From Eledone cirrhosa (Eukaryota), in NCBI GenBank assembly GCA_964016885.1, contig OZ024740.1, positions 349,184,001 through 349,248,000 on the forward strand: a DNA stretch of 64,000 nucleotides. Reading direction: 5' to 3'. A program made the position numbers and the translations under genes. Below are positions 1,035 to 62,092 of the stretch, one piece after another (positions within the stretch are counted from its first letter, which is position 1; every line of letters begins with the position of its first letter). Under the pieces are notes generated by a model. It saw only the letters and a program-made list of their open reading frames with translations. It was not told where the DNA came from and ran no database searches.

Positions 1035-4090
<3,056 letters not shown>

Positions 4091-12499: not shown

Positions 12500-13645
12500 T
12501 ATAAGTATATATGTATGTATGTATGTATGTATACGTACATACATATATGTATACAGACGTACAGTAGTATGTATATATATACATACAGGCACACATATAT
12601 ATATGCACGTATCGTTTTACCGAACATTTATTATAATGCTCGGTTTGTTTGTTTGTAAACAAACAAACAGCCCGAATTACGCCGTACAGTGTTTAGGCAA
12701 CCACGTCACCTTTTTGTTCAACACTGACACAGGAACGATGTACTAGTTTCAAGCTTATTAGCTATCGTCAGCATCGTATACTTTCCTGCCAGATGGTTGA
12801 ACGTCTGAAAGTATATACTTTCCTTATGCATATTAACGGCTGAGCAGCCTAATTTGCATATCGAGTGAGTTCAGTCGGCCGGGCACACCGAAAAGGATAA
12901 ATGGAATAAAATGAAACGAAATTTCATTTCTCACTCTTAGTACGGCACTTACTTAAATGTAAGTATGTATGTATGTATACGTACATACATATATGTATAC
13001 AGACGTACAGTAGTATGTATATATATATACATACACGCACACATATATATATGCACGTATCGGTTTGCCGATACGTGCATATATATATACACGTATCGGT
13101 AATATGCACGTACAAACAAACAAACCGAGCATTATAATAAATGTTCGGTAAACCGATACGTGCATATATATATGTGTGTGCATGTATGTATATATATACA
13201 TAATACTGTACGTCTGTATACATATATGTATGTACGTATACATACATTCTTACATTTAAGTAAGTGCCGTACTAAGAGTGAGAAATGAAATTTCGTTTCA
13301 TTCTATTCCATTTATCGTTTTCGGTGCGCTCGGCTCGATATGCAAATTAGGTTGCTCAGCCGTTAATATGCGTAAGGAAAGTATATACTTTCAGACGTTC
13401 AACCATCTGGCAGGAAGGTATACGATGCTGACGATAGCTAATAAGCTTGAAACTAGTACATCGTTCCTGTGTCAGTGTTGAACAAAAAGGTGACGTCGTT
13501 GCCTAAACACTGTACGGCGTAATTCGGGCTGTTTGTTTGTTTACAAACAAACCGAGCATTATAATAAATGTTCGGTAAACCGATACGTGCATATATATAT
13601 GTGTGCATGTATGTATATATATACATACTACTGTATGTCTATACG
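12500..13645. mobile_element. Retrozyme-like non-coding element, family A (~425-440 bp unit), partial tandem plus inverted copies
   Basis: Unit 12520-12960 restarts at 12961 and is mirrored at about 13070-13645. No ORF. Hammerheads at 12735-12777 (-) and 13422-13464 (+). Confidence 0.75.
13422..13464 (+). ncRNA. Minimal type I hammerhead ribozyme (family A)
   Basis: acgatg-CTGACGA-tagct-aata-agctt-GAAA-ctag-TA-catcgt: perfect 6 bp stem I, palindromic ACTAGT stem III, GUA site. Confidence 0.85.
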
Positions 13646-13646
13646 T

Positions 13647-14068
13647 TATACACATACAGCCCATTATCACATGTACCTATATGATTGAGGACTGTCATTT
13701 CAGTATACACTGCCACACATTGGTGATTGTTGCCAGGGTCCTCATAATCACCGCCACACACTACTTCTGCACGTTTTGAAGAGAAGACTGTTGAATCATG
13801 GATAATCCTCAGGCTCCAAAGACAAAGTGAACGTTCATGGACGAGATCAGAGTAAACAGCAGGTGTTTTACTAGTTTCACTAGTTTCTTTCTCTCGTGAC
13901 TGTTGTTTGTTATTTACTGCTTAAGTCATTTCAGCATGTAGAAAAGAATTATTGCCAAAGGTTGCACTGGACAAACTCTCGTTTTCATATTACACATTGG
14001 ATCCGGATTTGTGCCGAAGTCACAATTAAGATATAGTTGACGAGAAGAATGACAATCTGTAAAAGAAG
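13647..14068 (-). pseudogene. IL17: IL-17-like pseudogene, exon 2 (3'-truncated)
   Basis: Aligns with 60210-60646 (LLLQIVILLVNYILIVTSA...DLVHERSLCLW...EVVCGG...HQCVAVYTEMTVLNHIGTCDNGLYVY). A 17 nt deletion creates TGA (13985-13987), there is a TAA at 13921-13923, and the C-terminus is cut by the family A element. Confidence 0.9.
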
Positions 14069-21719: not shown

Positions 21720-24700
21720 ATCAAAAGATGGTTAAAGGAGTTCCATGTATTTTATTATGCGCATTTCAAAAACAAACATCATCATGCAATAATATTTGTG
21801 TTTTCATCAGATAAAACAGGAGAACATGATATGAAGGCTAAAAAACACTTGTGGATAGTGCAGTTTTAAATCAACATATGAAAAGTAGTTTTAGATTGAT
21901 GTGTGATATTGGGAAAAATATTTTATTTAGAGAGGGGGGGTGGAAAGGATGAAAAAAGGGGAGGAGATGAGAGTGAAGGTGGAGAGAGAGAGATGGGTGA
22001 TAGAGAGAAAGAGATAGTTTTTATAACTGAGAAAAGATATATTGTTTTACATAGAAAGGTTGAGAACCGTTGGAAGATAATGTATAAATTAAAAGAATTT
22101 GAAAATTAACGAAGGGAAAGAGAGGGAGTTGATATGTATTGAGATTTAAAAGTTTGAAGATAGAGAGAAAAAATAATAATTGCGGATGAATATTCTAACG
22201 TCAAAAAGGTGTATGTTTATAAGTATTATGGCAATTTCAAAATTAACGAAGAGAAAAAAATTATTAAGGTTTGTGTGTTGAAGTTAAAGTTTGTATATTG
22301 AAGGAATTGATAATATGTGCGAAGAAAGAGTTAATATGTATTACAATTATTAAGGTTTGTGTATTAGATGATTTGAGAAAAATAATGTGAAGTTAAGGTT
22401 TTTATATTGAAGGAATTGATAATTTGTGCGAAGAAAGAGTTAATATGTATTAAGAATGAGTTAGTTGATGGGAAGAAAAAAAAAAAAATTATTAAGGATG
22501 AATATTCTAGCGTCAAAAGAAGGAGAGGGAGTTGATGTATTGAGATTAAAAAGTTTGATGATGGAGAGAAAAAATAATAATAATTGCGGATGAATATTCT
22601 AACGTAAAAAAAACAAATGTATATGTTATGAAGGATTTTACAAGGTGAAGATAGAATGAGGGTAATGAGTAAACAAGTATTATAGAGTGTATAATGCCCT
22701 TTGAAGTAAGGTAGGAAGATGGGTATATTTTAAAGAGGTGTATGTATATGTGCCTTTGAGAAAAGATTCTAAATTGATAAAGAATTGAATATTAGCTGTA
22801 TACTTTGTGAAAAGTCCTATGGAATTTATGCAGGCAGATAGAAAACAAATCTGTACGTTATTATAGAATCTAGATTAGAGATAATGGTAAATTTTTCATT
22901 TAGGCAGAGATTACAGATTTTAGATAGAGAGCTGTTCAAGTATGAGGACGCAGAAGAAACCTTCTTCCAAAAGATGGTATATTTAATGTTTTTGTCTTTC
23001 AAGGACCATATGTGTTCTGAGAGAGCCGTGTTGGTTCTTTTAAGTTTGTATTTAAAAGATGAATGATGATTATAGAGACGAGCTTTAAAAGAGGTGGAAG
23101 TGGAGCCAAAATAGGTGAAGGAATAGGTGAAGACAAAAACATTAAATATACCATCTTTTGGAAGAAGGTTTCTTCTGCGTCCTCATACTTGAACAGCTCT
23201 CTATCTAAAATCTGTAATCTCTGCCTAAATGAAAAATTTACCATTATCTCTAATCTAGATTCTATAATAAATAGACGTACAGATTTGTTTTCTATCTGCC
23301 TGCATAAATTCCATAGGACTTTTCACAAAGTATACAGCTAATATTCAATTCTTTATCAATTTAGAATCTTTTCTCAAAGGCACATATACATACACCTCTT
23401 TAAAATATACCCATCTTCCTACCTTACTTCAAAGGGCATTATACACTCTATAATACTTGTTTACTCATTACCCTCATTCTATCTTCACCATGTAAAATCC
23501 TTCATAACATATACATTTGTTTTTTTTACGTTAGAATATTCATCCGCAATTATTATTATTTTTTCTCTCCATCATCAAACTTTTTAATCTCAATACATCA
23601 ACTCCCTCTCCTTCTTTTGACGCTAGAATATTCATCCTTAATAATTTTTTTTTTTTTCTTCCCATCAACTAACTCATTCTTAATACATATTAACTCTTTC
23701 TTCGCACAAATTATCAATTCCTTCAATATAAAAACCTTAACTTCACATTATTTTTCTCAAATCATCTAATACACAAACCTTAATAATTGTAATACATATT
23801 AACTCTTTCTTCGCACATATTATCAATTCCTTCAATATACAAACTTTAACTTCAACACACAAACCTTAATAATTTTTTTCTCTTCGTTAATTTTGAAATT
23901 GCCATAATACTTATAAACATACACCTTTTTGACGTTAGAATATTCATCCGCAATTATTATTTTTTCTCTCTATCTTCAAACTTTTTAATCTCAATACATA
24001 TCAACTCCCTCTCTTTCCCTTCGTTAATTTTCAAATTCTTTTAATTTATACATTATCTTCCAACGGTTCTCAACCTCTCTATGTAAAACAATATATCTTT
24101 TCTCAGTTATAAAAACTATCTCTTTCTCTCTATCACCCATCTCTCCCTCTCCACCTTCACTCTCATCTCCTCCCCTTTTTTCATCCTTTCCACCCCCCTC
24201 TCTAAATAAAAAAATTTTTTCCTCGTACATATTTTTCCCTTCGTTAATTTTCAAATTCTTTTAATTTATACATTATCTTCCAACGGTTTTCAACCTCTCT
24301 ATGTAAAACAATATATCTTCTCTCAGTTATAAAAACTATCTCTTTCTCTCTATCACCCATCTCTCCCTCTCCACCTTCACTCTCATCTCCTCCCCTTTTT
24401 TCATCCTTTCCACCCCCCCCCCCTCTCTAAATAAAATATTTTTCCCAATATCACACATCAATCTAAAACCACTTTTCATATGTTGATTTAAAACTGCACT
24501 ATCAACAAGTGTTTTTTTTAGCCTTCATATCATGTTCTCCTGTTTTATCTGATGAAAACACAAATATTATTGCATGATGATGTTTGTTTTTGAAATGCGC
24601 ATAATAAAATACATGGAACTCCTTTAACCATCTTTTGATCTTATATATTATGTATACTCCAGTCCTACAAACTGTAGAGTGCTTCTTATCCGATATCTGC

Positions 24701-24737: not shown

Positions 24738-24805
<68 letters not shown>

Positions 24806-24808
<3 letters not shown>

Positions 24809-25647
24809 TATGTACACGTACATACATATATGTATACAGACGCACAGTAGTATGTATATATATATACATACATGCACACATATATATATATGTACGTATG
24901 GATTCACCGAACATTTATTATAATGCTCGGTGTGTTTGTAAACAAACATCCCGTATTAAGCCGTAGTGTCCAGCAACCGTCATTGCTCGTTTGTTCAACA
25001 CTGACAAAGGATCGCTGTACTAGTTTCAAGCTTATTAGCTATCGTCAGCAACGCATACCTTCCTGCCAGATTGTTGAATGTATATACTTACCTTATGCAT
25101 ATTAACAGCTGAGAAACCCAATTTGCATATCGAATGGGTTAATCGGCCGGGTGCACCGAAAACGATAAACGGAAAAAAATGAAACGAAATTTCATTTCCC
25201 ACTCTTAGTACGGCTGTTACTTAAATATAAGTATGTACACGTACATACATATATGTATACAGACGCACAGTAGTATGTATATATATATATATACATACAT
25301 GCACACATATATATATGTACGTATGGATTCACCGAACATTTATTATAATGCTCGGTGTGTTTGTAAACAAACATCCCGTATTAAGCCGTAGTGTCCAGCA
25401 ACCATCGTTGCTCGTTTGTTCAACACTGACAAAGGAACGCTGTACTAGTTTCAAGCTTATTAGCTATCGTCATTATATTAAATGTTCGGTGAATCCATAC
25501 GTACATATATATATGTGTGTGCATGTATGTATATATATATACATACTACTGTGCGTCTGTATACATATATGTATGTACGTGTAGATAATTATATTTAAGT
25601 AACAGCCGTACTAAGAGTGGGAAATGAAATTTCGTTTCATTTTTCCC

Positions 25648-25650
<3 letters not shown>
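24806..25650. mobile_element. Retrozyme-like family A, tandem plus inverted copies in (TA)n
   Basis: Unit repeats at 24806 and 25229. Hammerhead 25013-25053 (-), second one truncated at about 25472, octamer ATTTGCAT at 25121-25128. Confidence 0.75.
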
Positions 25651-25706
<56 letters not shown>

Positions 25707-30039: not shown

Positions 30040-30534
30040 ATTACTTTTGCGAAGTTTTTTATATGAAATCGTGTGTCGAAACAAATATTGTTATAGATGG
30101 GGAGGGCCATATTTGTGTAATATTGCCAGAATTAATAACAGAACACACTCACTGTTTGGTTGGTTTTCGCTTTTCGCTTCTGTGTCTTTTATATCGGTAA
30201 TCTAATTTATTCGGTCCTCAATGTTGCCATTGACTGACCGACGGTCAAAAATAATACAGATACAATATAGACACAAAGAGGAAACAATAGCACCACTGAC
30301 GATGTTGCAGATGTGCAACGAAAGAACTTTGATAAACTATATATATGTGTTTGTGTCTATATTGTATCTGTATTATTTTTGACTATCGGTCAGTCAATGG
30401 CAACATTGAGGACCGAATAAATTAGATTACCGATATAAAAGACACAGAAGCGAAAAGCGAAAACCAACCAAACAGTGAGTGTGTTCTGTTATTAATTCTG
30501 GCAATATTACACAAATATGACCCTCCCCAAGTAT

Positions 30535-30540
<6 letters not shown>
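30040..30540. mobile_element. Fold-back copies of the 3' terminal repeat of the Naiad-like PLE
   Basis: Matches 40745-41041 in both orientations. Hammerhead-like CTGACGA-t-gttgca-gatg-tgcaac-GAAA at 30296-30323. Confidence 0.75.
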
Positions 30541-30598
<58 letters not shown>

Positions 30599-30888: not shown

Positions 30889-31005
30889 TTATATGTGTAT
30901 GTATATATAACAAAGAGGGTGTGGTAAGATATCAGGTGGACTATAATGCACCAGGCTAATCAATACTTAGGGTAATATGTATATGTATATATATATATAT
31001 ATATA

Positions 31006-31722
31006 GAAAAAGAGATGAAATCGAAAATGCAACTGGAGTCTTATTTTTTTTTTTAAATATATATATTTATTTGGTTCCTTTACCGGTTTCGCAGTTCTTC
31101 TGCTTTTCAAAAGGTGAGTTGAGATGGAGGGTCTGTGGTTTTTCTCACATCTGGTTGGTCTCTGAATGTTACTTGTTTTATATGGAAAAAGTGGCTCGAA
31201 ATGCCAGGTTTTTCGAGAAGTAATTTGATTGGTTTGTCAATAATTATAATAAATTTCGCGCCAGTTCGCGTTACAATAGTTCTTCAAATAAGAGGGGTTT
31301 GTCACAGGTTGTTTTTTCATATATGAGTGTTGAAAAAACAACCTGTGACAACCCCCCCCCCCCCCCCTCTTATTTGAAGAACTATTGTAACGCGAACTGG
31401 CGCGAAATTTATTATAATTATTGACAAACCAATCAAATTACTTCTCGAAAAACCTGGCATTTCGAGCCACCTTTTCCATATAAAACAAGTAACATTCAGA
31501 GACCAACCAGATGTGAGAGAAACCACAGACCCTCCATCTCAACTCACCTTTTGAAAAGCAGAAGAACTGCGAAACCGGTAAAGGAACCAAATAAATATAT
31601 ATATATATTTTTTTAAATAAGACTCCAGTTGCATTTTCGATTTCATCTCTTTTTCTTTATACTTTCACTCGTGTAGGACACCTCGGTTATTTTTCATTTT
31701 GTAAAAAAAACCTCACTTTCTA
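31006..31722. mobile_element. Fold-back PLE-end insertion with variant hammerhead (31547-31584 +, mirror about 31077-31114 -)
   Basis: Arms about 31006-31318 and 31333-31655. cctt-TTGAAAA-gcag-aagaa-ctgc-GAAA-ccgg-TA-aagg. Confidence 0.75.
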
Positions 31723-38500: not shown

Positions 38501-41039
38501 CACAGCAAATACATGATGGGGGAGAGAAAATCCTCAACACCACATGATGATGTGGACCGACATTCTAAAGCCAAGCAGACGCACTGCCAACAACTTCCAG
38601 GCGTCCAACAATGGCGTACCACACTTGTATGGGCTCCGCAAAGACCACAAGACAGTCGACGACCCGACAATAGGACCACCAACAAGACCTGTATGCGGAT
38701 CAAATATAGCTAGCAACTACAGGATCTCCTAATTCCTCTCAATGGTTATACGCCCCATAATCAAGATGTCCCCAGATGTATGTGACAGTACAGAGGACCT
38801 CCTCAGCAGAATCAGTGAGTGCAACAAAAACAGGAACCTATCCAACTGCATAATAGGCAGTATGGATGTGGTATCACTGTACCCATCGATTAACATTGAT
38901 TTTGCTGTGGTCAAATGTGTGGAGATAATCATTGAGAGTGACGTGGAGTTCTGCGACGTCGACACAGACGAACTGGGCCTCCTACTTAGACTCACCTACG
39001 ACACTGACTACCTAGAGAGCCATGACCTTAGACGTTTCTTCCCCAGTAGACCCATAAGAGGTAGACTCCCCACCATAACCTCAATGGCAAAAAAGACTCC
39101 CATGGGAAGGTGAATTGGGTGGACCAAAGCTATACGGGCCCCCAAAACAATGATCAGGTCAGAAAAATGGTCGCACATGCAATAGGAGCTAGTATCAAAA
39201 CTACCCTAAAGGGCCACATATTAAAGTTCAGCGAGAAGATCTACACCCAAAATGAGGGAGCAGCCAATGGCGTCAGCATAGCTGGTGACGTTGCCAACCT
39301 TTTTATGGTATGGTGGGAAAGGAGACTCAAAGATCTCCTTGATGAGAGCTCCATAGACCTCATCATGTACTCTCGTTACGTAGACGACATCAATATAGTA
39401 ATAAGGACATCCCCACAAGAGAGCACTAACAAGTTTGATTTAGAACGTAGCACAATGGAAAGCATCCAACAGATAGCTAATTCCATACACCAGAGTATAA
39501 CTGTAACTATCGACTACCCTTCCAAACACCCTAACAATCAACTACCTGTATTAGACACGGAACTCTGGATTAACACTATAGACGAGAGAGCCCAAATTCT
39601 CCACTCACACTATGCTAAACCCATGGCCTCCAAATACATGATACTCAAAAACTCAGCAATGTCCAGTAGTGCTAAGTTTAATATTCTGATCGCAGACTTG
39701 GTACGAGTGATGAAGAACGTGTCCCGCATGTGCGACCCAACAGAAATGGAAAGGCACATCCAACACTTCATCAACCGCATGCAGTTCTCTGGCTACAACC
39801 AAAGAGACAGAATCAGAGAATACGAAGGAGCCACGGAGAAGTATAAGACCCTCATAGAACTGGACATGAAAGGAATTTGCCCATTATACAGGAGCAAATC
39901 ATGGAATAGCTAAGATAGGGAAAGCCACCTCATGGTACGATAACCAGAGATACAAAAGTGTCATGTTTGTGGACGCTACGCCTGGAGGGAAATTAGCTAA
40001 CCAGTGTAGAAACTCCCTGAGAAAGACCCACTTAAAGATTAAGGTGGTAGAAAAGCCAGGAACCAGCATAAAATCCCTGATCAGCAAAACCTACCCTTTT
40101 GAGAAAACCCACTGTACTAATAGGAAATGTATCATATGTAGAGTAAACCCCCGGATAAACTGTTAAACTAGAAACGTAGTCTATAGCATAAGATGTCCAG
40201 AGGGTACTTGCAGAAACATGACAACAACATAAATAGACGAGACAGCTCGTAGCATAGGTGAAAGGATAGACCAACACTAGGGGGAACTAAAAGGACGAAA
40301 AAACGGTTCAGTACTATACGAACATGCCAGACAACAACACGACAGTAACATAGACAACATAGAAATTAGAATAATATCTAAACATAGAAATGACCCAGCA
40401 GATAGGCAAATCAGAGTGGCCAGCGAAATAGAACTTAGAAGGCCAAGGCTAAACAGAAAAAATGAATGGAATAACAACACCCAAACAAACAACACTGACC
40501 TAAGAGAAGTATAAATAAATAAATACACAAGCACAATAACAACAAACACATATAAACACACACTAGTAAACTAAGATAGAATACATTAACCAATACACAG
40601 TCATCCAAACAAGAACACACATCAAACAAAACACTATACACACACGCAAACGCATGCGCAGAGAAGACAAACAAAAATAAATAAACAAATAAATAAATAA
40701 ATAAACAAACTAAATAAAGATGGCGTAAGCATACAATGCAACGGGAGGAAACATAATAGCACCACTGACGATGTTGCAGATGTGCAATAAAATAACTCTG
40801 ATAGACTATATATATGTGTCTATATTGTATCTGTATATTTGACCGTTGGTCAGTCAATGGCAACATTGAGGACCGAATAAATTAAATTAACCGATATAAA
40901 AGACACAGAAGCGAAAACCAACCAAACAGTAAGTGTGTTCTGTTATTAATTCTGGCAATACTATTACACAAATATGATCCTCCCCAAGTATAACAATATT
41001 TGTTTCGACACACGATTTCATATCAAAAACCTCGCAAAA

Positions 41040-41041
<2 letters not shown>
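35541..41041 (+). mobile_element. Naiad-like Penelope element (RT plus GIY-YIG), degenerate, interrupted by a Dong copy
   Basis: LPPKFA, TDKSGR, PPTRPVC, GSMDVVSLYPSI, YSRYVDDI, DYPSKH..LPVLDTELW, MFVDATPGGKLA, CTNRKCIIC, NVVYSIRC..*IDETARS. The 3' repeat has a hammerhead-like motif. Clade assigned from motif recall. Confidence 0.8.
36253..37762 (+). mobile_element. R4/Dong-clade LINE, 5'-truncated copy nested in the Naiad-like ORF
   Basis: Highly similar to about 6748-8247. Ends aactg(taa)n. ORF 36995-37618 retains CCHC, RHD and the PD..D endonuclease motif. Confidence 0.9.
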
Positions 41042-41135
<94 letters not shown>

Positions 41136-41525: not shown

Positions 41526-41569
<44 letters not shown>

Positions 41570-41571
<2 letters not shown>

Positions 41572-42546
41572 TAAGTTAAAAATGTACATCCACATATGTA
41601 TACTGAAATATGAATACACACACGTATACATATGTAGATGTACCGAGTTTTTCACTGGTCACTTTACTGTGAGTGTCCAGCTATTCTGTATGTAAACACA
41701 CAGACAAACCGGTTTTTAGAGTCATACTGGTTTTTGAGGAAACACCTTTCCTCTATTCTTCAGAAAGCCAGACAAGGAATATTGAACTAGTTTCGTTGTT
41801 GTTACAACTCATCAGCAATATTTACCTATCTTCCGGCCTTTCTAGAGAATCGTAAAAGCACATATCGTTATATGCTTTTTCTATGAAAATTAGTAGTGGG
41901 CAGACTAATTTGCATAGAGCGTGAGTACGTACCGGTTCAATGGAGACGATAAAAACAAATAACGAAACGTATGTATACATATGTGGATGTACATTTTTAA
42001 CTTAATTGTTTAAGCGTCAGTCATACAAAAGTGAGTTACAAACGAAACGAAATTTAATTTCGTTTCGTTATTTGTTTTTATCGTCTCCGTTGAACCGGTA
42101 CGTACTCACGCTCTATGCAAATTAGTCTGCCCACTACTAATTTTCATAGAAAAAGCATATAACGATATGTGCTTTTACGATTCTCTAGAAAGGCCGGAAG
42201 ATAGGTAAATATTGCTGATGAGTTGTAACAACAACGAAACTAGTTCAATATTCCTTGTCTGGCTTTCTGGAGAATAGAGGAAAGGTGTTTCCTCAAAAAC
42301 CAGTATGACTCTAAAAACCGGTTTGTCTGTGTGTTTACATACAGAATAGCTGGACACTCACAGTAAAGTGACCAGTGAAAAACTCGGTACATCTACATAT
42401 GTATACGTGTGTGTAGTCATATGCATACTAGTATTTCAGTATACATATGTGGATGTACATTTTTAACTTAATTGTTTAAGCGTCAGTCATACAAAAGTGA
42501 GTTACAAACGAAACGAAATTTAATTTCGTTTCGTTATTTGTTTTTA
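41570..42546. mobile_element. Retrozyme-like family B (~466 bp unit), inverted plus tandem copies in (TA)n
   Basis: 41570-41968 mirrors 42055-42475. gtatacatatgtggatg recurs at 41973 and 42439. Octamer at 42115-42122. No ORF. Confidence 0.75.
42208..42252 (+). ncRNA. Minimal type I hammerhead ribozyme (family B; mirror about 41778-41822 on minus)
   Basis: aatattg-CTGATGA-gttgt-aaca-acaac-GAAA-ctag-TT-caatatt: 7 bp stem I, 5 bp stem II. Confidence 0.85.
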
Positions 42547-42579
<33 letters not shown>

Positions 42580-44768: not shown

Positions 44769-44825
44769 TTCTATTACATATATTTCAAGAGTACCAAAAT
44801 GTTGGTACGCTTTCATCAGATAAAA
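44769..44825 (-). ncRNA. Type I hammerhead at a PLE-like 3' end
   Basis: Minus strand ttttat-CTGATGA-aagcgtacca..tggtactctt-GAAA-tatatg-TA-atagaa. Confidence 0.65.
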
Positions 44826-45390
44826 TACAAAGTTTGTTTTATAAATATTGACATCTCCAGGAAGGAGGTCTTAACTGTTCAAGTTTTTTCTGGATAGTAA
44901 AAGGAAAGAGGGGAAAAAGAGGAAAAGTCAAATATTTCAAATTATTAAAATGAATATGCAAATGAGGGTGAGGTATAGGGCTGAAAAAAAAACGTTATTT
45001 TTAGACGCTAGGTAGATTTTTAAAATTATTAGGATATATATATGTACGTATGTGTAGGAACAAGAAAGAGAAAGAAAGAAAAGCTTGTATTACCGTGAAT
45101 TTAAAAAGAATTAACGGTTTGTAGGCGTGGTGGAATATGATTCCAGAATTTAAAAAATTATTTAGCTATATTATAAGTTATAATATTATATATATAATCA
45201 ATTAGATTATATGAAGAATTATGGTTGTAAGTACATTTTATCTTATTACATTGCAACAGGTTGTAAGTATATAAATATCTATATAGATTAATAATTGTGC
45301 AAGTATAAATATTATTGGTGATTTTATAGAAATAAACCACACGTATTAATTGTTTGCATTTCTAATATGAGTACAATAAAACTCACCTCC

Positions 45391-46329: not shown

Positions 46330-47232
46330 GTTTCTGTTTTCGTAATTCATCAATGCCTATTGCTTTAGCCCTTTCTATTCCATTATTTATTAGTAAGGGT
46401 TGGTACTGTCTTTCGAGCAGAATTTCTTTAATTCTTGAAGGCTTTTATTTCGCGTTTCATAATTGGAGACAATTGGGCAAATTCTTCTTGCTAGATTAAA
46501 AGGGATGTTCGTCTTTGTGTGCTTTGGATTGCTGAGGTGAATAGCAGGTATTGTTTGGAATCTGTTGGTTTGTAGTGTATGTCAGTTTCAATATTTGTGT
46601 CTTTTTCATGATTAAGATGTCCAGAAATGGGAGTTGATCTTGGCTGTATTCCATTGTGAATTAGATGTGGTTATTGATGCTGTTAATTAAATTTTTAAAA
46701 TCATTTAGTTGGTCGAGTGTGTGAGACCAAAGAATAAGGCAGTCATCCAAGTAGCGTTTCCAATTCTCTGATAAATATTTGTGGAAGTTCAAGCCGTATT
46801 TTGATTTGGAGTGTTAGTATATCTGGACTTCCAAGTATGCCATGACTAAGTTGGCGTAAGTTGGAGCAACGTTTGTACCCATCGCAGTCCCCGATATTTG
46901 TTTGTAAGTACTGCCATAGCAATCAAAACTGTTGTTCTGTAAAATAAATGTTAATCCCTCGGTGATGAAGCTTTTTTTCTATTCTGTCAGGTATCTCATT
47001 GGAGTATTTTTCTAGCCAGAATCCTATTGCTTCTAGTCCGTATTGGTGTAGGATCGTCGTGTAGAGATTCACTACATCGAAAGACACAATAATAGTGACG
47101 CTGTTGACATGTTTGGGGAGGTGGTTTAAGAGGTCCATGTCGTCTCTTACAAGGCTTGGTATGTATTTGAGAATTGGTTTTAGTAGTATGTCTATAAAGT
47201 TGCTCAGCCTGTGTGTTTCACACTGTGAGCCG
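46330..47232 (-). mobile_element. Degenerate PLE reverse transcriptase fragment
   Basis: SFDVVNLYTTI, GTAMGTNVAPTYANL, WKRYLDDC, LPFLD, YKPT; many frameshifts. Confidence 0.85.
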
Positions 47233-47283
47233 TAAATAAGTCGACCGTAAATAAGTCGACCGTAAATAAGATTAATAGCTCTA

Positions 47284-47672
47284 GGAGAGCCATGAACGAC
47301 ACCACATCTTTTTAACTTTGATTTTGAAAGTAGGTTTATAATTATTAATTTTGATTATACATTTGAAGCTTCTCGGGGTCTTTTTGGGGAGAATCATAGC
47401 CGGTGTTGGTCCTGGTGTGAAATTCGATCCTGGTCGGCAGTAGGGATCCCGGTAAACCTTTTCAGTTTTTTTCGATGGGAGGTAAAATGAAAACTGAAAA
47501 AGATTACATGTTCCTCACGATCAGGATTGTACCCAAGACCAGGATCTCTACCGCTCTAGTACCTACCGCCAGTCCACTGAGACAGCCACGAAAATCTCCT
47601 GAAAATTCATACTTATAAACCTACTTTCAAAATGTTCAATACAAATTGATATGGTGTCGTTCATGTCTCTCT
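47284..47672. mobile_element. MITE-like element with imperfect ~60 bp terminal inverted repeats
   Basis: gagagccatgaacgacacca...ttttgaaagtaggtttataa mirrors ttataaacctactttcaaaa...tggtgtcgttcatgtctctc. Confidence 0.5.
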
Positions 47673-47811: not shown

Positions 47812-47967
<156 letters not shown>

Positions 47968-48047
47968 ATATTTGAATCTTCTATGATTTCGGCTTACTTT
48001 ATTCATATATATATGTTTTTGTATGTCAGTTAGATTCAAACATACAA

Positions 48048-48087
<40 letters not shown>

Positions 48088-48204
48088 TAAATGGAAACTA
48101 TCTTTATAAAAATATATATATATATAGTACCAATCATTGTAAGTTTGAATCTAACTGACATGCATAACATATATACATGAATAAGTTATATAAGATTCAA
48201 ATAT

Positions 48205-48274
<70 letters not shown>

Positions 48275-49670: not shown

Positions 49671-49864
49671 GATAAATCCACCAATTAATGGTAGGGTCTA
49701 AGCCGTATGAAGAACTCAATGTAATCCGTATGTAGAAGATGTCGTGAAGCAAAGTTTAAAATACAAAATTTCAACGATATAATTCATTGGATACAGAGTC
49801 AAAAATACAAATAGTGAAAACAATCAAATTAAACAAAAAACGGTTAATTCAAAGTAAAACTCAT

Positions 49865-49995
49865 TATTTTACGATCGTTTCTGGGGGGTAGTTCCCCGTA
49901 TGTCCATTCTATTATTGATCTATGTAAAATATATTACAAATTATCATAGTAAGAAAATATACATACGTCTTTTCTACCCGCCGTCTTCAGAAATA
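49865..49995 (-). ncRNA. Type I hammerhead with ~80 nt loop II, in fold-back 49813-50158
   Basis: Minus strand tattt-CTGAAGA-cggcgggtag...ctacccccca-GAAA-cgatcg-TA-aaata. Confidence 0.65.
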
Positions 49996-50153
49996 AATCA
50001 AGACGTATGTATATTTTCTTACTATGATAATTTGTAATATATTTTACATAGATCAATAATAGAATGGACATACGGGGAACTACCCCCCAGAAACGATCGT
50101 AAAATAATGAGTTTTACTATGAATTAACCGTTTTCTGTTTAATTTCATTGTTT

Positions 50154-50192
<39 letters not shown>

Positions 50193-50280: not shown

Positions 50281-50872
50281 TGCTCTGAAATAGCGATATA
50301 TATATGAATATATATATAGTGTATTTTGCAATACACTGTATGATTAATTAAAAGCATTTTGAAGACCATATGCTATTGTTTTAAAGTAGCGACATTGTCG
50401 CTTACTTAAATTTTCAGCAGACAGGGGGAGATAAGTTGACAGCGTTGTTTCGTACTGTTTTGTACTTTTCAAAACTCACTACTCTCCCTGTCTGCCGAAA
50501 ATTATGTGTGTTGGATTCTTATAGAATTCCAGTAACAATCAGGAACTGATTTTACAGACCGGTCGTCGGCCCAGCAGAAAATTTAAGTAAGCGACAATGT
50601 CGCTACTTTAAAACAATAGCGTATGGTCTTCAAAATGCTTTTAATTAAGCATACAGTGTATTGCAAAATACACTATATATATATTCATATATATATCGCT
50701 ATTTCAGAGCACCAATTCTAATTTTCAATTTCTGCTGGGCCGGCGACCGCTCTGTAAAATCAGTTCCTGATTGTTACTGGAATTCTATAAGAATCCAATA
50801 CACATAATTTTCGGCAGACGGGGAGAGTAGTGAGTTTTGATAAGAACAAAACAGTACGAAACAACGCTGTAA
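50277..50872. mobile_element. Retrozyme-like family C, fold-back insertion; hammerheads 50434-50476 (-) and 50833-50872 (+)
   Basis: Homologous to 45429-45842. agtt-TTGAAAA-gtac-aaaaca-gtac-GAAA-caacgctg-TC-aact. Confidence 0.7.
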
Positions 50873-51207
50873 ATTATGTGAAAATACTAAAAACAAATAT
50901 GTATTGAACTAATATATATAAACATTATTATACAGGAAGCTAGAATAATTAATAGAAGGAATGTTGATTGGACATTTTTAACATTTCATGGAATCAATGA
51001 AAATTAACGAAGGACCGAAAAAAGCGCATCGCAGACATTCTAACAACTCAGAATTTTACATATATCTGCACCAAGTGCAGCAAGAATTGTTACTCATGCT
51101 TCAGTCTGCACAGTTACCGCAGACGAGCCATACCTATGTGCATTAAGCATGGTCTCCCGAGACTGCGCTCTCAATGAATATATATATATGTGTGCGTGTG
51201 TGTATAC

Positions 51208-53851: not shown

Positions 53852-56800
53852 TAATAATAAATTTGAAGACTAAAATCCAAAGAGGGCTCGATAAGGATAA
53901 ATATATATCAAATATATAAGAACCGTAGAGCTACGGTTTTTATATATTTGATATATATTTATCCTTATCGACATCTCTTTGGATTTAAGTCTTCAAATTT
54001 ATTATTATTATTACTATTTGGCTACCTCGGTTGAGCACTCTATTGACTTATATTCATCATGCAGAAACAACATCTGAATATTTCTACAAAGAACATACCC
54101 GTACCAAGCAGGAAACATATCTAAAACTCCTGATACAGAAAACAGACGCGTTCATTAAAAGGTTGCGTTGGCGTGCCTTTTATTTCGATAATCAGGAAAA
54201 AGCAGACAACAAACAGGATAAATTTGGGTTTAAAACCTATAATAACCCTCTGAGTAACCCAGCATTGCTACCCTTCGAAATTGATGTCTTGGAACTCATA
54301 CGGAGTATCAAATTTCAGAATAGGAGCAATTCCTTCAAGCATGACCTGAAGAATATAATTCGTTCTATTAAGGATTCTAATGCCGTGCACGTCCATTCCA
54401 ACAAAACTGGCAATCTATATCAAGTGGGGCGCAGTACTTACCATCAACTGCTACATAATACTGAAACTAAGGATTACCGTAAAACTAATCGGAGCGTCAT
54501 TAATGAAATCAACCATGCTAGGTTTAAAATCACCTCTGATCTCAACATCCTGGACCGGACTGAACCTCTGGACCCTATTTCTCCCCACTTTACTATGAAG
54601 GATCACAAATCCACTTTTCCGAACAACCCCTCTATTCGGCTTATTAACCCTACGGAGTCCGATTTAGGTAGACTTAGTAAAAGGATTCTTGATAGAATTA
54701 TACCTGAAATTAGAAGTTTGGCCCCTCATGCACTGTGGAACAATCTTTCGCGGTGATTGATTGGTTCAACTGCATATGCAACAAGGAACATTGCCGTTTT
54801 ATCCAATTAGAGATCAATAATTACTACTCCTCCATCACTTTACCACTTCTCCTTAGAGCTATCAATTTCGCTAAAACACTCACAGTGGTTAAGGATTTCG
54901 AAGTTGATGTCATCCTCAATGCCCGTAAGTCGGTGATTAATTTCGACGACTCTATTTGGATTAAAAAATCTAATAGCACCCCATTCGACATGAGTATGGG
55001 CGCCAGCGATTCTGCGGAAGTTACTGATCTTATCGGCCTTTTCCTTCTTTTCTCTATCAAGGAAGAATTCCCCAACGTGGGCGGTGGTTTGTACCGTGAT
55101 GATGGTCTTTTGACCATGACTAAGTGCGGCCCACGTGCTTGCGACAGGTTCAGAAAAGAACTCACAGCCTTCTTTAAAGGCTTCAACCTCTCCATACAGG
55201 TTGAGGCCAACCTCTCGGTCGTTAATTACCTCGACGTTACCCTCAATTTATCGAATGGCTTGCATTACCCATATAGAAAGCCGAATGATACGCTTAATTA
55301 CATAAGCAAGCATTCTAACCATCCTGGCAGCATAACCAAGAACCTGGTAAGAAACGTTTCTTTGAGGCTTTCCCGTCTATCTACTAACGAGCATATTTTC
55401 AACGACCATTCCACATATTACAATGAAGCTCTTGCTCGGAGTGGATTTGTCGATAAGGTAGCATATACAGAATACGAGAATAGACCTAGAAGAAATAGAT
55501 CCTGACGCATTATATGGTATAACCCACCATATAATATAGAGGTGGCCACACCATTAGCTAAGATCTTTCTCTCCCTTATTATGAAGCATTTTCCCCCTAC
55601 ACATAAATATAGTAACATTTTTAATAGAAACTAATAAATACTATTAAATACTATTAAAATGTCTTACTCTGCGACTCCTAACCTTGCACATAACATCACA
55701 GCTTCAAATTTAGCTAAACTACCTAGCCGTAGGAACACATGCAACCCTGTAATTAGTACTAACTGTAATTGTAGGAATCGGGTTGACTGCCCCTTATCCG
55801 GGAAATGCCTCTCTAGTAACATTGTCTACAAATGTAAGGTTGAAACACCCACGTCCCGTAGGGCCTACATAGGGTTAACCGCCAATAGATTCAAGCAGCG
55901 TCTTTACATGCATACCCATTCTTTTCATAACCCTTTAAGAAGGAATATGACGTCACTTTCAGCTGATATCTGGAGTCTAAAAGACAACCACACCCAATAT
56001 AAGTTACACTGAGAGATCCTAGCTAGGGCTAGATCGTATAACGGAAATAAAAGACCATGTGACCTCTGCGCCGCTGACGCCCTAGAAATACTCTACGCCA
56101 AAGATCACATCTTAAACAAAAAATCTGAGGCAATTTCGGCTTGTAAACATAAATTGCACAAAACTTTCCTGTATTACAGCCCCACATTATACCCTAACGG
56201 ATAGTACGAACTATACGCGGATATTTTACGGTTTGATGTGGTAGCTAAGTATATGTTATGTTTATATCATTACTTATTTGTATAGGTAAAAATATATATT
56301 ACCTGTATGTTTTGTGAAGGTACGTATACTTTCTCGTACGTATATTTGATTGTATATGTTATGGCGTATATATTATATATTCTGGTACATATGCTTTTGG
56401 TTACGTAAGTTTTGCTTCTGTGTTAGTATGCGGGTTCGTACGTTTGTAGGGTGTATGTATATGTGTACTTTGTGTTTTGGTTGACGTACGTCTCCGAACA
56501 TATGTGTATGTACATGTAGGTATGTGTGTGCGCTTGTTATATACGTATTTATTTATTTATATACGTTTATTTAATTATATGTATACACGCACACACACAC
56601 ACATATATATATTTTTTTTTTTTATATATATTTTTACGTGTATTTGGTGTATACATTCGTATGCGTGCGGGTACAGGCGTTGCGTGGGTTCTGTATGTGC
56701 GTGCGGGCTTTTTTTCTTCTTTTTTTGTGTGTACGTACGTGTATGTGTATACCTATGGCGAGCGTTTTCGCGTATGCTTGTGTATGTTCGTATATGGATG

Positions 56801-57316
56801 CGTGCATGTATTTATTTAATTTCAATTACCTATGTATTTTATTTACTTTATTCTTAACTCTGAAGCCGAGAATCATTCGGTTTCCTAGTTAGAATTTTAA
56901 TCTACGACTTCAGTTATACCATTTACGTGGTTTTGTCTTTGCGTGCAATTGTTCTCCACACTCCACATATGACGTATTATCTTCGCTTTTTCCGTTCATT
57001 GCCAGAGAACGTCTCTATGAACCACCTAATAGAATATTAGTCTACGACTTCTTTTATACCATAAACGTGGTTTTGTCTTTGCGTGTAATTGTTTTTCACC
57101 GCTCCAAATAATGACGTATTATATTCGTTTTTTCCCGTTCTTTGCCAGGGAACGTTTCCACGAAGCAAAGTATCGTCTTCCTATCTTCCTCCGGTTGCAA
57201 CGCTTTTTGAAATATTTACTTCTGCGTTCACAGATTGACTTTGTTAGTTTCAGAAGATCCCGTTAAGGGTGAAAGCAGCAATTCTTTGCTTAAACTTTAA
57301 TCTGTTATTTTAATAA
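53850..57316 (+). mobile_element. Near-complete Nematis-like Penelope element (frameshifted RT plus GIY-YIG, 5' inverted terminal piece, 3' UTR)
   Basis: FIKRLRWRA, KDHK..F..RLINP, MGASDSAEV, GLYRDDGL, NYLDVTLNL, SNHP, WYNPP, CNCRNRVDCPLSGKCL, IVYKC..YIGLT. Hairpin at 53850-54015 and terminal hammerhead-like motif at 57246-57296. Confidence 0.9.
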
Positions 57317-57331
57317 ATATATATATATATT

Positions 57332-58802: not shown

Positions 58803-59650
58803 TGAAAAAATGAAACGAAATTTCATTTCTCACTCTTAGTACGGCTGTTACTTAAATATAAGTATGTATACGTACATACATATATGTATACAGACGTACA
58901 GTAGTATGTATACATATATGTGTGCATGTATTATACATACAGTAGTATGTATAATACATGCACACATATATATATGTACGTATGGATTCACCGAACATTT
59001 ATTATAATGCTCGGTGTGTTTGTAAACAAACATCCCGAATTAAGCCGTACAGTGTATATATATATACATACATGCACACATATATATATGTACGTATGGA
59101 TTCACCGAACATTTATTATAATGCTAAACAAACATCCCGAATGTATATATATATACATGTATATATATATACATACTACTGTACGTCTGTATACATATAT
59201 GAATGTACGTATACATACTTATATTTAAGTAACTAAGAGTGAGAAATGAAATTTCGTTTCATTTTTTCCGTTTATCGTTTTCGGTACCCCGGCCGATTAA
59301 CTCACTCGATATGCAAATTAGGCTGCTCAACCGTTAATATGCATAAGGAAAGTATATACTTTCAGACGTTCAATCATCTGACAGGAAGGTATACGTAGCT
59401 GACGATAGCTAATAAGCTTGAAACTAGTACAGCGTTCCTTTGCCAGTGTTGAACAAATGAGCAGCGATGGTTTCTAGACACCGTACGGCTTAATTCGGGA
59501 TGTTTGTTTACAAACAAAGCGAGCATTATAATAAATGTTCGGTGAATCCATACGTACATATATATATATATGTGTGCATGTATGTATATATATATACATA
59601 CTACTGTGCGTCTGTATACATATATGTATGTACGCATACATACTTATATT
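58803..59650. mobile_element. Retrozyme-like family A, fold-back copy downstream of IL-17
   Basis: Octamer at 59311-59318 and hammerhead at 59393-59435 (+). Closest to the 24806 copy. Confidence 0.75.
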
Positions 59651-60121: not shown

Positions 60122-60646
60122 TTATTCCTCATACTCGTTATTTCCCTTAGTTATCACATCAACTTTCCGTGCATAAACACAGGATGTTGCCACATTTATT
60201 ACAATTGGACTATACACATAAAGTCCATTATCACATGTACCTGTATGATTGAGGACTGTCATTTTAGTATATACTGACTCACATTGGTGATTTTTGTCGG
60301 GGAACTCAACATTATCCCCACGACATACTACTTCTGTACGTGATGGAGGGAAGATTGTTGGATCATGGATAATCTTCAGGTTCCAAGGACAAATTGAACG
60401 TTCATGGACGAGATCAGAAGAAACAGCAGGTGTTGTACTTGTTTCATTCTCTCGTGACAGTGTTGTATCGTTATTTACTGCTGGAGCCATTTCAGCATGT
60501 AGAAAGAATTTATTGCCGATGTCTGCACTGGATAAACTCTCGTATTGGTCTTTTAGGTCAGTTGGTATTTCACATTGGATCTGGATTGGTGCCGAAGTCA
60601 CAATTAAGATATAGTTGACGAGAAGAATGACAATCTGTACGAGAAC
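60122..60646 (-). CDS. IL17: Interleukin-17-like cytokine, exon 2 (174 of 179 aa)
   Basis: Open frame after acceptor tttatatattgcag. Hydrophobic signal VLVQIVILLVNYILIVTSA. IL-17 motifs ERSICPW, DPTIFP..EVVC, C.SVY..MTVL, C..G.Y.Y, VATSC. Sequons NDT, NET, NHT. Confidence 0.9.
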   Translation of the reverse strand, partial: VLVQIVILLVNYILIVTSAPIQIQCEIPTDLKDQYESLSSADIGNKFFLHAEMAPAVNNDTTLSRENETSTTPAVSSDLVHERSICPWNLKIIHDPTIFPPSRTEVVCRGDNVEFPDKNHQCESVYTKMTVLNHTGTCDNGLYVYSPIVINVATSCVYARKVDVITKGNNEYEE

Positions 60647-62092
60647 CTGCAATATATAAAATATTATATCAAAGAGTGCTTCATAATTTTAATGTGACAC
60701 TTATTCAGATAAACAAATCAGAAAATAATAGTTGAGATGATTTGAAAATAGCTGACCAGAAAAATACATATATTTAACGAAGATTATATGAGAGAAGTGT
60801 GTGTGTGTGGCGGGGGGGGGGGAGTATTATAACAATGAAGATGAAATAGAGTAGAGATATTATTGCCAATTTAAACGTTTATTACTGCTACATAAAGAAG
60901 TGGTTTTTCTCCGTAGTCTAAGAAGTTAGACTTGAATATGTGACATTTCAGAAAAAATAATACACTCGCTCATGAAACAAAGTAAACATCTTTAGATCAT
61001 CTCATTCATTAGTAAATTTATAACTTGGGGTTGCAGATGTAATGCAGTGTTGCTGTGTAATTACTTACCCATATATATATTTCTACTTTTTTCGGATTAG
61101 TTGAGTGGAATGGTGTCATTATATATACTGTTATATAGTCCAACATATATACTATACTGGCTGCCAACAATCCCAACGATCGCTAATATTCCTTTCACCC
61201 TTTCGAAATTGATAAATAAATACCGGTCCAGTACTACTGCAGATACTTCCCCCATATTTCTATCTCACTCCATATCACAACAATGTCTCACAATCTATGG
61301 AAAACATTGTATGTGATCAGAGCAAGTGATTACATAGGCTCTTCTTAAAGTTAAAATATGTCCCAGAATCCACTCTAAGTTATGGATAGGTTAGAAGGGA
61401 AGAAAGAAAGAGAGGAAACTAAAAAGAGGTAATACTATATGAGTTTCTAATATAGTTTCTAATTTCACACATGAATTACCAATCGTTAGGATGCTATTAG
61501 TCATATAATTCTGCAATACATTTTGCCAATGTAACATTTAGAACCTGTCTAACCTGTTAAAATATTTTCAATATGTTTATTATTTCTATGATTATTTCAG
61601 AACCTCATAATACTGGTATTTTATTTAACTACATAAATGTATCTCTATTTAAGGCTAACATTACCCATATTAAATTATTATATTTATTATTATTTTACAT
61701 TAGTTACATATGTTACATGTGATCCCAGTTCAATTCTTACTGCATCTCATCTCTTAAATTTTCAGGTCAAAGTTAATTCTTCTGATAACGTAGATAATAG
61801 TTTTAACAATATACTAACTCACAGTGAAAAATACATTAGATAACCCAACATAAACCTACATTAATATAAATTAAACATCTAATAGTAATCTGCAGTGAGG
61901 TATAAAGACAAGAAATCCTACTGGGGTGCAATCGTTTCATACATATATTGTCATAGGAAATCATATGTGTCAATTTAAGTTATTTCAAGTAAATAGCATT
62001 TTTGTTAAACTTTCTTTACCCATAACTATGTATTACTACATAACTACATAAAGGAATATATGAGATAATAATATTAATTAATCGTTACTTAC

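Follow-up and report, generated by a model that had tools for sequence, protein, structure and literature searches.

A high-copy non-LTR retrozyme, in which a hammerhead ribozyme stands behind a likely U6-type promoter and which is likely mobilised in trans by Penelope elements, is the reading we favour, with a probability of roughly 0.6, for a short tandem repeat of the window (the whole stretch of DNA that was analysed, 64,000 nucleotides). The repeat is a non-coding unit of ~435 bp, family A, accompanied in the window by a ~466-bp relative, family B (41568-42547). That the element is a retrozyme is, as judged from its sequence, very probable. As far as the accounts considered here go, the transcription of animal retrozymes and the enzyme that mobilises them are open points of the literature; the family gives exact coordinates for a predicted start, two promoter elements and two reverse-transcription start sites.

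Repeat unit and hammerhead ribozyme

An earlier note on this DNA had described the unit as non-coding and had placed it at three loci, as partial tandems with fold-back arms. Self-BLAST and the sequence bear this arrangement out, and no ORF of at least 120 aa is present at the retrozyme loci; a fourth, related locus (family B, 41568-42547) had been missed. The placement of the arms in (TA)n holds in general, with the exception of the plus arm of locus 1, which ends at 13645 at a truncated IL-17-like segment. Families A and B have units of 432-467 bp with a GC content of 0.355-0.366; the period of family A is about 440 bp at locus 1 and about 423 bp at locus 2, and family B is 66-77% identical to family A over parts of the unit. 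The order of elements is motif, TATA, hammerhead, hairpin-rich body, and a terminal hairpin with a T-run. The motif ATGCAAAT is found at 13340 (+), 59311 (+), 25121-25128 (-) and 12852-12859 (-). At the three family A loci CTGACGA starts 88, 88 and 80 nt past the start of the motif, in keeping with the ~75-90 nt given before, and is followed by GAAACTAGTA, such that each locus harbors the type I hammerhead that had been reported. The features are as follows.

12502..13071, minus strand: locus 1, inverted arm of family A (about 1.3 units) that runs up to the second fixed 3' site in (AT)n
12741..12860, minus strand: locus 1, second copy of promoter and hammerhead (motif 12849-12860, core 12765-12771, stem III 12741-12750)
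13116..13645, plus strand: locus 1, family A forward arm, ending against the IL-17-like segment
13284..13315, plus strand: terminal hairpin together with fixed 3' site 1 (TTTAT), which lie inside the locus 1 copy
13339..13350, plus strand: TATGCAAATTAG, a predicted PSE-equivalent with the same sequence as the proximal element of host U6 locus L084
13382..13388, plus strand: TATA-like box, 42 nt after the motif (46-48 in host genes)
13407..13475, plus strand: type I hammerhead of locus 1 (core 13428-13434, stem II 13435-13448)
13449..13458, plus strand: GAAACTAGTA, with predicted cleavage after 13458
24805..25472, minus strand: locus 2, family A inverted arm, variant with an 8-nt shorter spacer and its end at site 2 (motif 25118-25129, core 25042-25048, stem III 25018-25027)
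25443..25472, minus strand: locus 2, partial hammerhead
25471..25653, plus strand: locus 2, forward arm with its end at site 1 in (AT)n
41568..42012, minus strand: locus 4, inverted arm of family B (466 bp) with its end at site 2 (motif 41905-41916, core 41809-41815)
41973..42547, plus strand: locus 4, forward arm of family B that runs up to site 1 in (AT)n (motif 42114-42125, TATA-like box 42158-42163, core 42215-42221, stem III 42236-42245)
58804..59058, minus strand: locus 3, arm that stops within the T-run, a few bases before site 1 is reached
59141..59646, plus strand: locus 3, arm ending at site 2 (motif 59310-59321, TATA 59353-59359, core 59399-59405, stem III 59420-59429)

The pattern motif-N60-90-CTGANGA has 25,764 matches (13,195 and 12,569 on the two strands) in the 3.0-Gb genome to which the window belongs, against only 6 (5+1) for the reversed control. 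Unit arrays of 29 and 13 near-identical copies occur, with a mean identity of 99.3%. A 14-kb array of about 30 family B units (L103-L104, G000:C1:5737000-5757000) looks like the inverted arm of a single insertion, with site 2 at one end and, at the other, a fold back to a 346-bp arm that ends at site 1. The sequencing runs of two other organisms gave 26% of words, with six contigs on the unit in one run (X5) and none in the other (X6), numbers that are too few to build on.

The unit encodes a predicted self-cleaving hammerhead of canonical type I with covarying stems. Helix I has 6 bp and is extended distally, helix II spans 4 positions and carries a 6-nt loop, and the palindrome ACUAGU closes a helix III of 2 bp; in family A a U.U replaces the G-C at the base of helix II, a feature shared by axolotl HHR_Amex2 in the published account (PMC7229834). 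The ribozyme had been called minimal. Minimal Penelope hammerheads have a long helix II, a short helix I, little or no helix III and an extra nucleotide between 9 and 10.1 (PMC4209133); the geometry found here is instead that of the canonical type I as defined in the same work. Among 14 variants of families A and B, hand-picked from the commonest forms, 94% of cells are paired and 6 of 12 pairs change on both sides, as compared to at most 44% pairing in slid controls; kinship of the variants inflates the shuffle test, and the aligner misplaced the rows of a further family (C, see below), which for this reason do not enter the pair count. An intact core is present in 52 of 70 copies of family A and 28 of 29 of family B. 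The local fold of the hammerhead is strong in B (z -4.9) and weak in A (z -1.75 to -0.08), and predicted unit circles fold at z -3.7 to -9.9 relative to 25 shuffles. An Rfam scan of the window returned mostly AT-repeat microRNA noise: among the 150 of 193 matches listed, only family B is found at HH9 (two hammerheads at the locus, E 6.1e-6, 37.7 bits, under the gathering score of 52), and family A hammerheads are absent. A separate repeated hammerhead family with the palindromic stem III ACAGACTGT is found at loci L040, L034 and L243, without the upstream motif. For comparison, cleavage in vitro is reported for one of nine Xenopus retrozyme dimers in a 2026 preprint (bioRxiv 10.64898/2026.07.22.740005).

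Predicted promoter signals and host snRNA-type genes

All five host Pol III type-3 loci with an intact upstream region carry the sequence TATG(C/G)(A/T)AAT(T/G)AG at -76 to -78 and a TATA at -30. Three of the five are distinct U6 loci, one is the best U6atac locus and one the only RNase MRP locus; U6 loci L089 (interrupted by an insertion) and L097-L102 as well as U6atac loci L116-L120 are not part of this count. The copies at L097, L099-L102 and L116-L120 are promoterless, several of them adjoining (AT)n, and are likely retrocopies. A U6-type motif near -77 is found in none of the eight host U1/U2 loci, even at two mismatches. Across the snRNA loci inspected (L061-L096, L115, L121), U6, U6atac and MRP combine TATGCWAATKAG at -77 with TATA at -30, and in the U1 and U2 genes TCAGT (about -57) and an AATTA motif (about -90) are seen; a distal motif resembling TTACCTCCCTT is present at about -260 in host U1, U2 and U6.

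The 12-mer of the element is letter for letter that of host U6 locus L084. The earlier note had set conservation across copies as a test for its octamer, and among copies chosen without regard to the motif an exact ATGCAAAT is present in 46 of 52 (A) and 33 of 35 (B). Within families the motif ranks 8 of 227 windows in A and 65 of 227 in B by conservation, which is weak evidence because the copies are young. Between families, the 12-mer itself is the longest exact block common to A and B. A TATA-like box follows at +42 (A) and +43 (B, C), and the spacing from motif to TATA stays at 42-43 while that from TATA to core varies by 20 nt; in the host the box is found at +46 to +48, so that the value in families A, B and C is 4-5 bp, or about half a helical turn, under that of the host. 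T-runs of five or longer are located at the unit end in 40 of 62 ends of family A and 21 of 25 of family B, with no run over T4 in the other 22 of 62 family A ends; family B has a T6 at unit position 346 and a T5 at 428.

The claim that the unit contains an snRNA-type promoter finds support in the sequence, where motif and TATA precede the hammerhead, in families A, B and C 4-5 bp closer together than in the host U6-type loci. The motif had been taken for a distal octamer enhancer; it sits instead at the position of the proximal element of host U6, U6atac and MRP, together with a TATA. The predicted PSE of Schistosoma japonicum U6, located at -71, begins GTGCGAATGAG (PMC5460494), a similarity that favors a proximal element over a distal octamer. 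A working promoter in the unit is probable on these signals. Motif and TATA likely point to Pol III type 3 rather than to the Pol II type of newt satellite 2, and Pol III as the specific polymerase is somewhat favored.

The pattern of host consensus, TATA and core also retrieves related families (452+464 matches, compared to 1+0 in the control). Most of these matches belong to family C, a 328-bp tandem unit that is unalignable to A or B (L232 at G000:C1:118162000-118168700, L212-L216, L219-L221 and L233-L241). Family C has its own full hammerhead with the palindromic stem III ATGCAT, the motif TATGCAAATGAG and a TATA at +43; the 12-mer is the only in-register block between C and either A or B, and in the predicted fold of C it is not part of a stable helix. 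A single T-run of four or more is found in the 328 bp, at the unit end. Families D (L217, L218, L223-L229, L239) and E (L222) are older, decayed hammerhead repeats with the same motif and a TATA at host spacing (+47 in D, +48 in E). The TATA of C, D and E is not independent evidence because the search pattern demanded motif, TATA and core; in families found by the pattern, only the full ribozyme and the anatomy count as such.

We note that Penelope-type hammerheads in the same loci lack the motif. A GAG variant of the 12-mer occurs in a Penelope-type terminal repeat (window 44955-44966, plus strand, and also at L098); the window copy is antisense to the hammerhead of that repeat at 44819 and has no fitting TATA.

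Insertion anatomy and competing explanations

A pattern of terminal hairpin, TTTAT and (AT)n has 9,408 matches (4,644+4,764) in the genome, compared to 4 (1+3) in the control, and loose ends at 13315 followed by (AT)n are found in 70 contigs of public run X1. A total of 87 insertions were mapped from 90 of the first 100 listed junction places, all on contig C1. An inverted arm is present at the 5' break in 50 of the 87; direct arms span the predicted cut site in 60 and include their own motif in 48. Inverted arms were mapped in 49 cases, four of which run off the locus and are left out: 39 of the remaining 45 (26 of 32 in family A, 13 of 13 in family B) end in (AT)n at a second fixed site located 60-70 nt upstream of the first. 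Two fixed ends are also present in family C (10 of 11 junctions), and the coding Penelope elements of the same genome likewise end at two sites in (AT)n. A Penelope enzyme cuts and extends both strands in vitro and starts at two internal RNA sites that define a tail, a property called unique to the Penelope group (PMC11167929); the reverse-transcription sites mapped here match this mechanism. The Penelope-type mobilisation proposed before is in line with the two fixed 3' ends, the 5' inversions and the (AT)n targets, and a Penelope-like reverse transcriptase/endonuclease acting in trans is the likely agent. The template must have been circular or uncleaved, because most copies run across the cut site, and the data fit both forms alike. 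At the cut site the 5' breakpoints show no enrichment in family A (2 of 62, expected 1.85) and a weak one in family B (3 of 22, p = 0.02 uncorrected); at the predicted transcription start there is no pile-up in A (0 of 62) and at most a weak one in B (2 of 22).

Searches for a partner element were without a positive outcome. Co-insertion with one Penelope family was rejected, as the sequence beyond (AT)n consists of many different repeats in both orientations; and a short likeness of the family A end to a Poseidon-type element is too weak to name a partner. The 3' ends of 30 GIY-YIG loci, a narrow sample, show no homology to the unit that would identify an autonomous partner. These 30 are the best-scoring of 10,597 candidates and comprise about five families.

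Under the favored reading, transcription would start about 30 nt past the TATA (~13412), within the 5' strand of hammerhead stem I and about 47 nt before the cleavage site. Some transcripts may read through the T-run into the next unit, by which the promoter would be copied. The hammerheads, probably acting as dimers via the palindromic stem III, would cut the read-through RNA into unit-length RNA, which may circularise. The Penelope enzyme would then nick both (AT)n strands and prime at the two fixed sites of circular or uncleaved multimeric RNA, and priming at two sites would result in fold-back insertions that bring the promoter to a new location. Gene-external promoters are normally lost in retroposition. 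It is an even bet, in our estimate, that a superfamily of ribozyme retroelements (at least families A-D) captured a whole gene-external U6-type promoter and has kept it via the copying of circular or multimeric RNA. If so, such copying solves the loss of external promoters, every unit of the tandem would amount to a full Pol III gene whose RNA cleaves itself and circularises, and the start points of the Penelope enzyme on the RNA circle would be those mapped by the two fixed ends.

The same retrozyme with the same upstream signals might also be transcribed by Pol II, in the mode of newt satellite 2, which is reported as a Pol II product of an snRNA promoter in PMC2220036 and PMC6765202. Pol II would pass the T-runs freely and yield the multimers that the insertion data call for, it would be indifferent to the internal T5-6 runs of family B that Pol III would meet before the next promoter, and it is compatible with a spacing of motif and TATA that is 4-5 bp off the host Pol III genes. 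We regard this reading as rather unlikely: the motif matches the host Pol III genes (5/5) and not the host Pol II snRNA genes (0/8), the lone T-run of family C is placed like a terminator, and family D (47) keeps the host spacing. A somewhat different proposal is that of an ordinary retrozyme that is transcribed by read-through from neighbors, with the 12-mer kept for an RNA hairpin, for protein binding or by ancestry. The motif does form part of a hairpin in the folds predicted for A and B, its conservation in family B does not exceed that of the flanks, it also occurs in an unrelated repeat, and the host distal motif TTACCTCCCTT is absent from the sense strand of the four monomers tested at up to two mismatches. 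That the longest exact block shared by A and B recurs before the hammerhead of the unalignable family C, where it is outside any stable helix, that the motif of the element is variable at the very T/G position where its host counterpart varies, and that the TATA-like box keeps a fixed distance in A and B, neither of which was selected for TATA, makes this proposal improbable.

The unit could, finally, be the detached pseudo-LTR of an unsampled coding Penelope family, and the earlier note had itself raised a terminal repeat of a coding Penelope-like element; no such copy occurs among the sampled loci. The insertion anatomy resembles that of Penelope, and 24 of 57 Xenopus retrozyme families are homologous to known elements, nearly all of them Penelope termini, in the 2026 preprint. 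With 12 Penelope queries set against 162 overlapping loci, however, no ORF abuts the unit as its own terminal repeat; three Penelope ORFs located upstream in sense orientation are each separated from it by their own 3' end and an (AT)n tract; neither the unit nor the motif forms the 3' repeat of any of the 30 best-scoring GIY-YIG loci; and pure arrays of 29 and more units exist. We consider this origin very unlikely and retain the retrozyme with a likely U6-type promoter.

Comparison with known systems and window neighbors

Self-promoting hammerhead repeats as such are already known, namely newt satellite 2 (Pol II) and repeats of Schistosoma (Pol III). Newt satellite 2, as described by Coats, Zhang and Epstein in 1994, reportedly has an octamer and a start offset of ~46 nt. 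The promoter of Schistosoma SM-alpha is internal and of tRNA type, whereas that predicted here is of the gene-external U6 type. SM-alpha otherwise resembles the unit in that a Pol III promoter is followed by a hammerhead in tandem units, and its promoter lands at the 3' end of the cleaved RNA, so that tandem copies are needed (PMC6765202). Newt satellite 2 likewise is a hammerhead tandem with an snRNA-type promoter within the unit and a start shortly before the ribozyme; it is reportedly transcribed by Pol II (PMC2220036; PMC6765202), whereas the signals described here match host Pol III type-3 genes.

Metazoan non-LTR retrozymes are also non-coding tandem units of 150-450 bp with a GC content under 45%, and share with the unit a canonical type I hammerhead, a strongly folded predicted circle and coexistence with Penelope, according to Cervera and de la Pena 2020 (PMC7229834) and the 2026 preprint. 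Their expression and their circles have been demonstrated in these works, while those of the present unit are predicted from sequence. In the text of PMC7229834 consulted, 'octamer' does not occur and 'promoter' refers to T7 only, and the part of the preprint by Li, Clavereau and Pollet (bioRxiv 10.64898/2026.07.22.740005) that was available describes no promoter, in contrast to the U6-type element and TATA of the unit. The two fixed reverse-transcription ends mapped here are a further difference from the metazoan retrozymes in these accounts. A literature search, with most subscription papers, Dfam and Repbase outside its scope, returned no description of the family and, with the same reservation on subscription papers, no retrozyme with a U6-type external promoter.

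Penelope-like elements such as Poseidon of Anolis share with the unit the (TA)n targets, 5' truncation, inverted 5' arms, partial tandems and two internal initiation sites that give rise to a tail, in PMC11167929 and PMC8557442. The unit differs from them by the absence of an ORF, by a canonical rather than minimal hammerhead and by a tail of 60-70 nt (45 nt in family C) in place of 30-40. SINEU (Kojima 2015, PMC4494074) is likewise a non-autonomous retroelement tied to snRNA genes: it consists of an snRNA body without the promoter, whereas the unit has promoter signals without an snRNA body. If the promoter works, the family would represent a retroelement equipped with an external promoter of U6 type, which retroposition normally leaves behind, and a compact natural cassette for circular RNA. 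The host U6-type promoter consensus defined here is useful for guide-RNA expression in this animal group.

The window also contains several other features. Two IL-17-like segments (13648-13980 and 60122-60688, both minus strand) are 68% identical, and the second matches Pfam PF06083; both are within about 500 bp of a family A locus, and the first is truncated at its border with locus 1. The best Atlas cluster of the IL-17-like protein is mostly Mollusca, with clusters of Chordata scoring equally. Broken coding Penelope-like elements of several kinds (971-2474, 38733-41050 and 53989-57320, plus strand; 46923-47354, minus strand) end in microsatellites, and the 3' region of the element at 53989-57320 contains a variant hammerhead-like motif with CAGAAGA. 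Penelope-type hammerheads are found at 21810 and 24549. Other fold-back insertions bounded by microsatellites are located at 3126-3928, 21914-24218, 30085-30542, 31000-31661, 47901-48271, 49805-50166 and 50431-50877.
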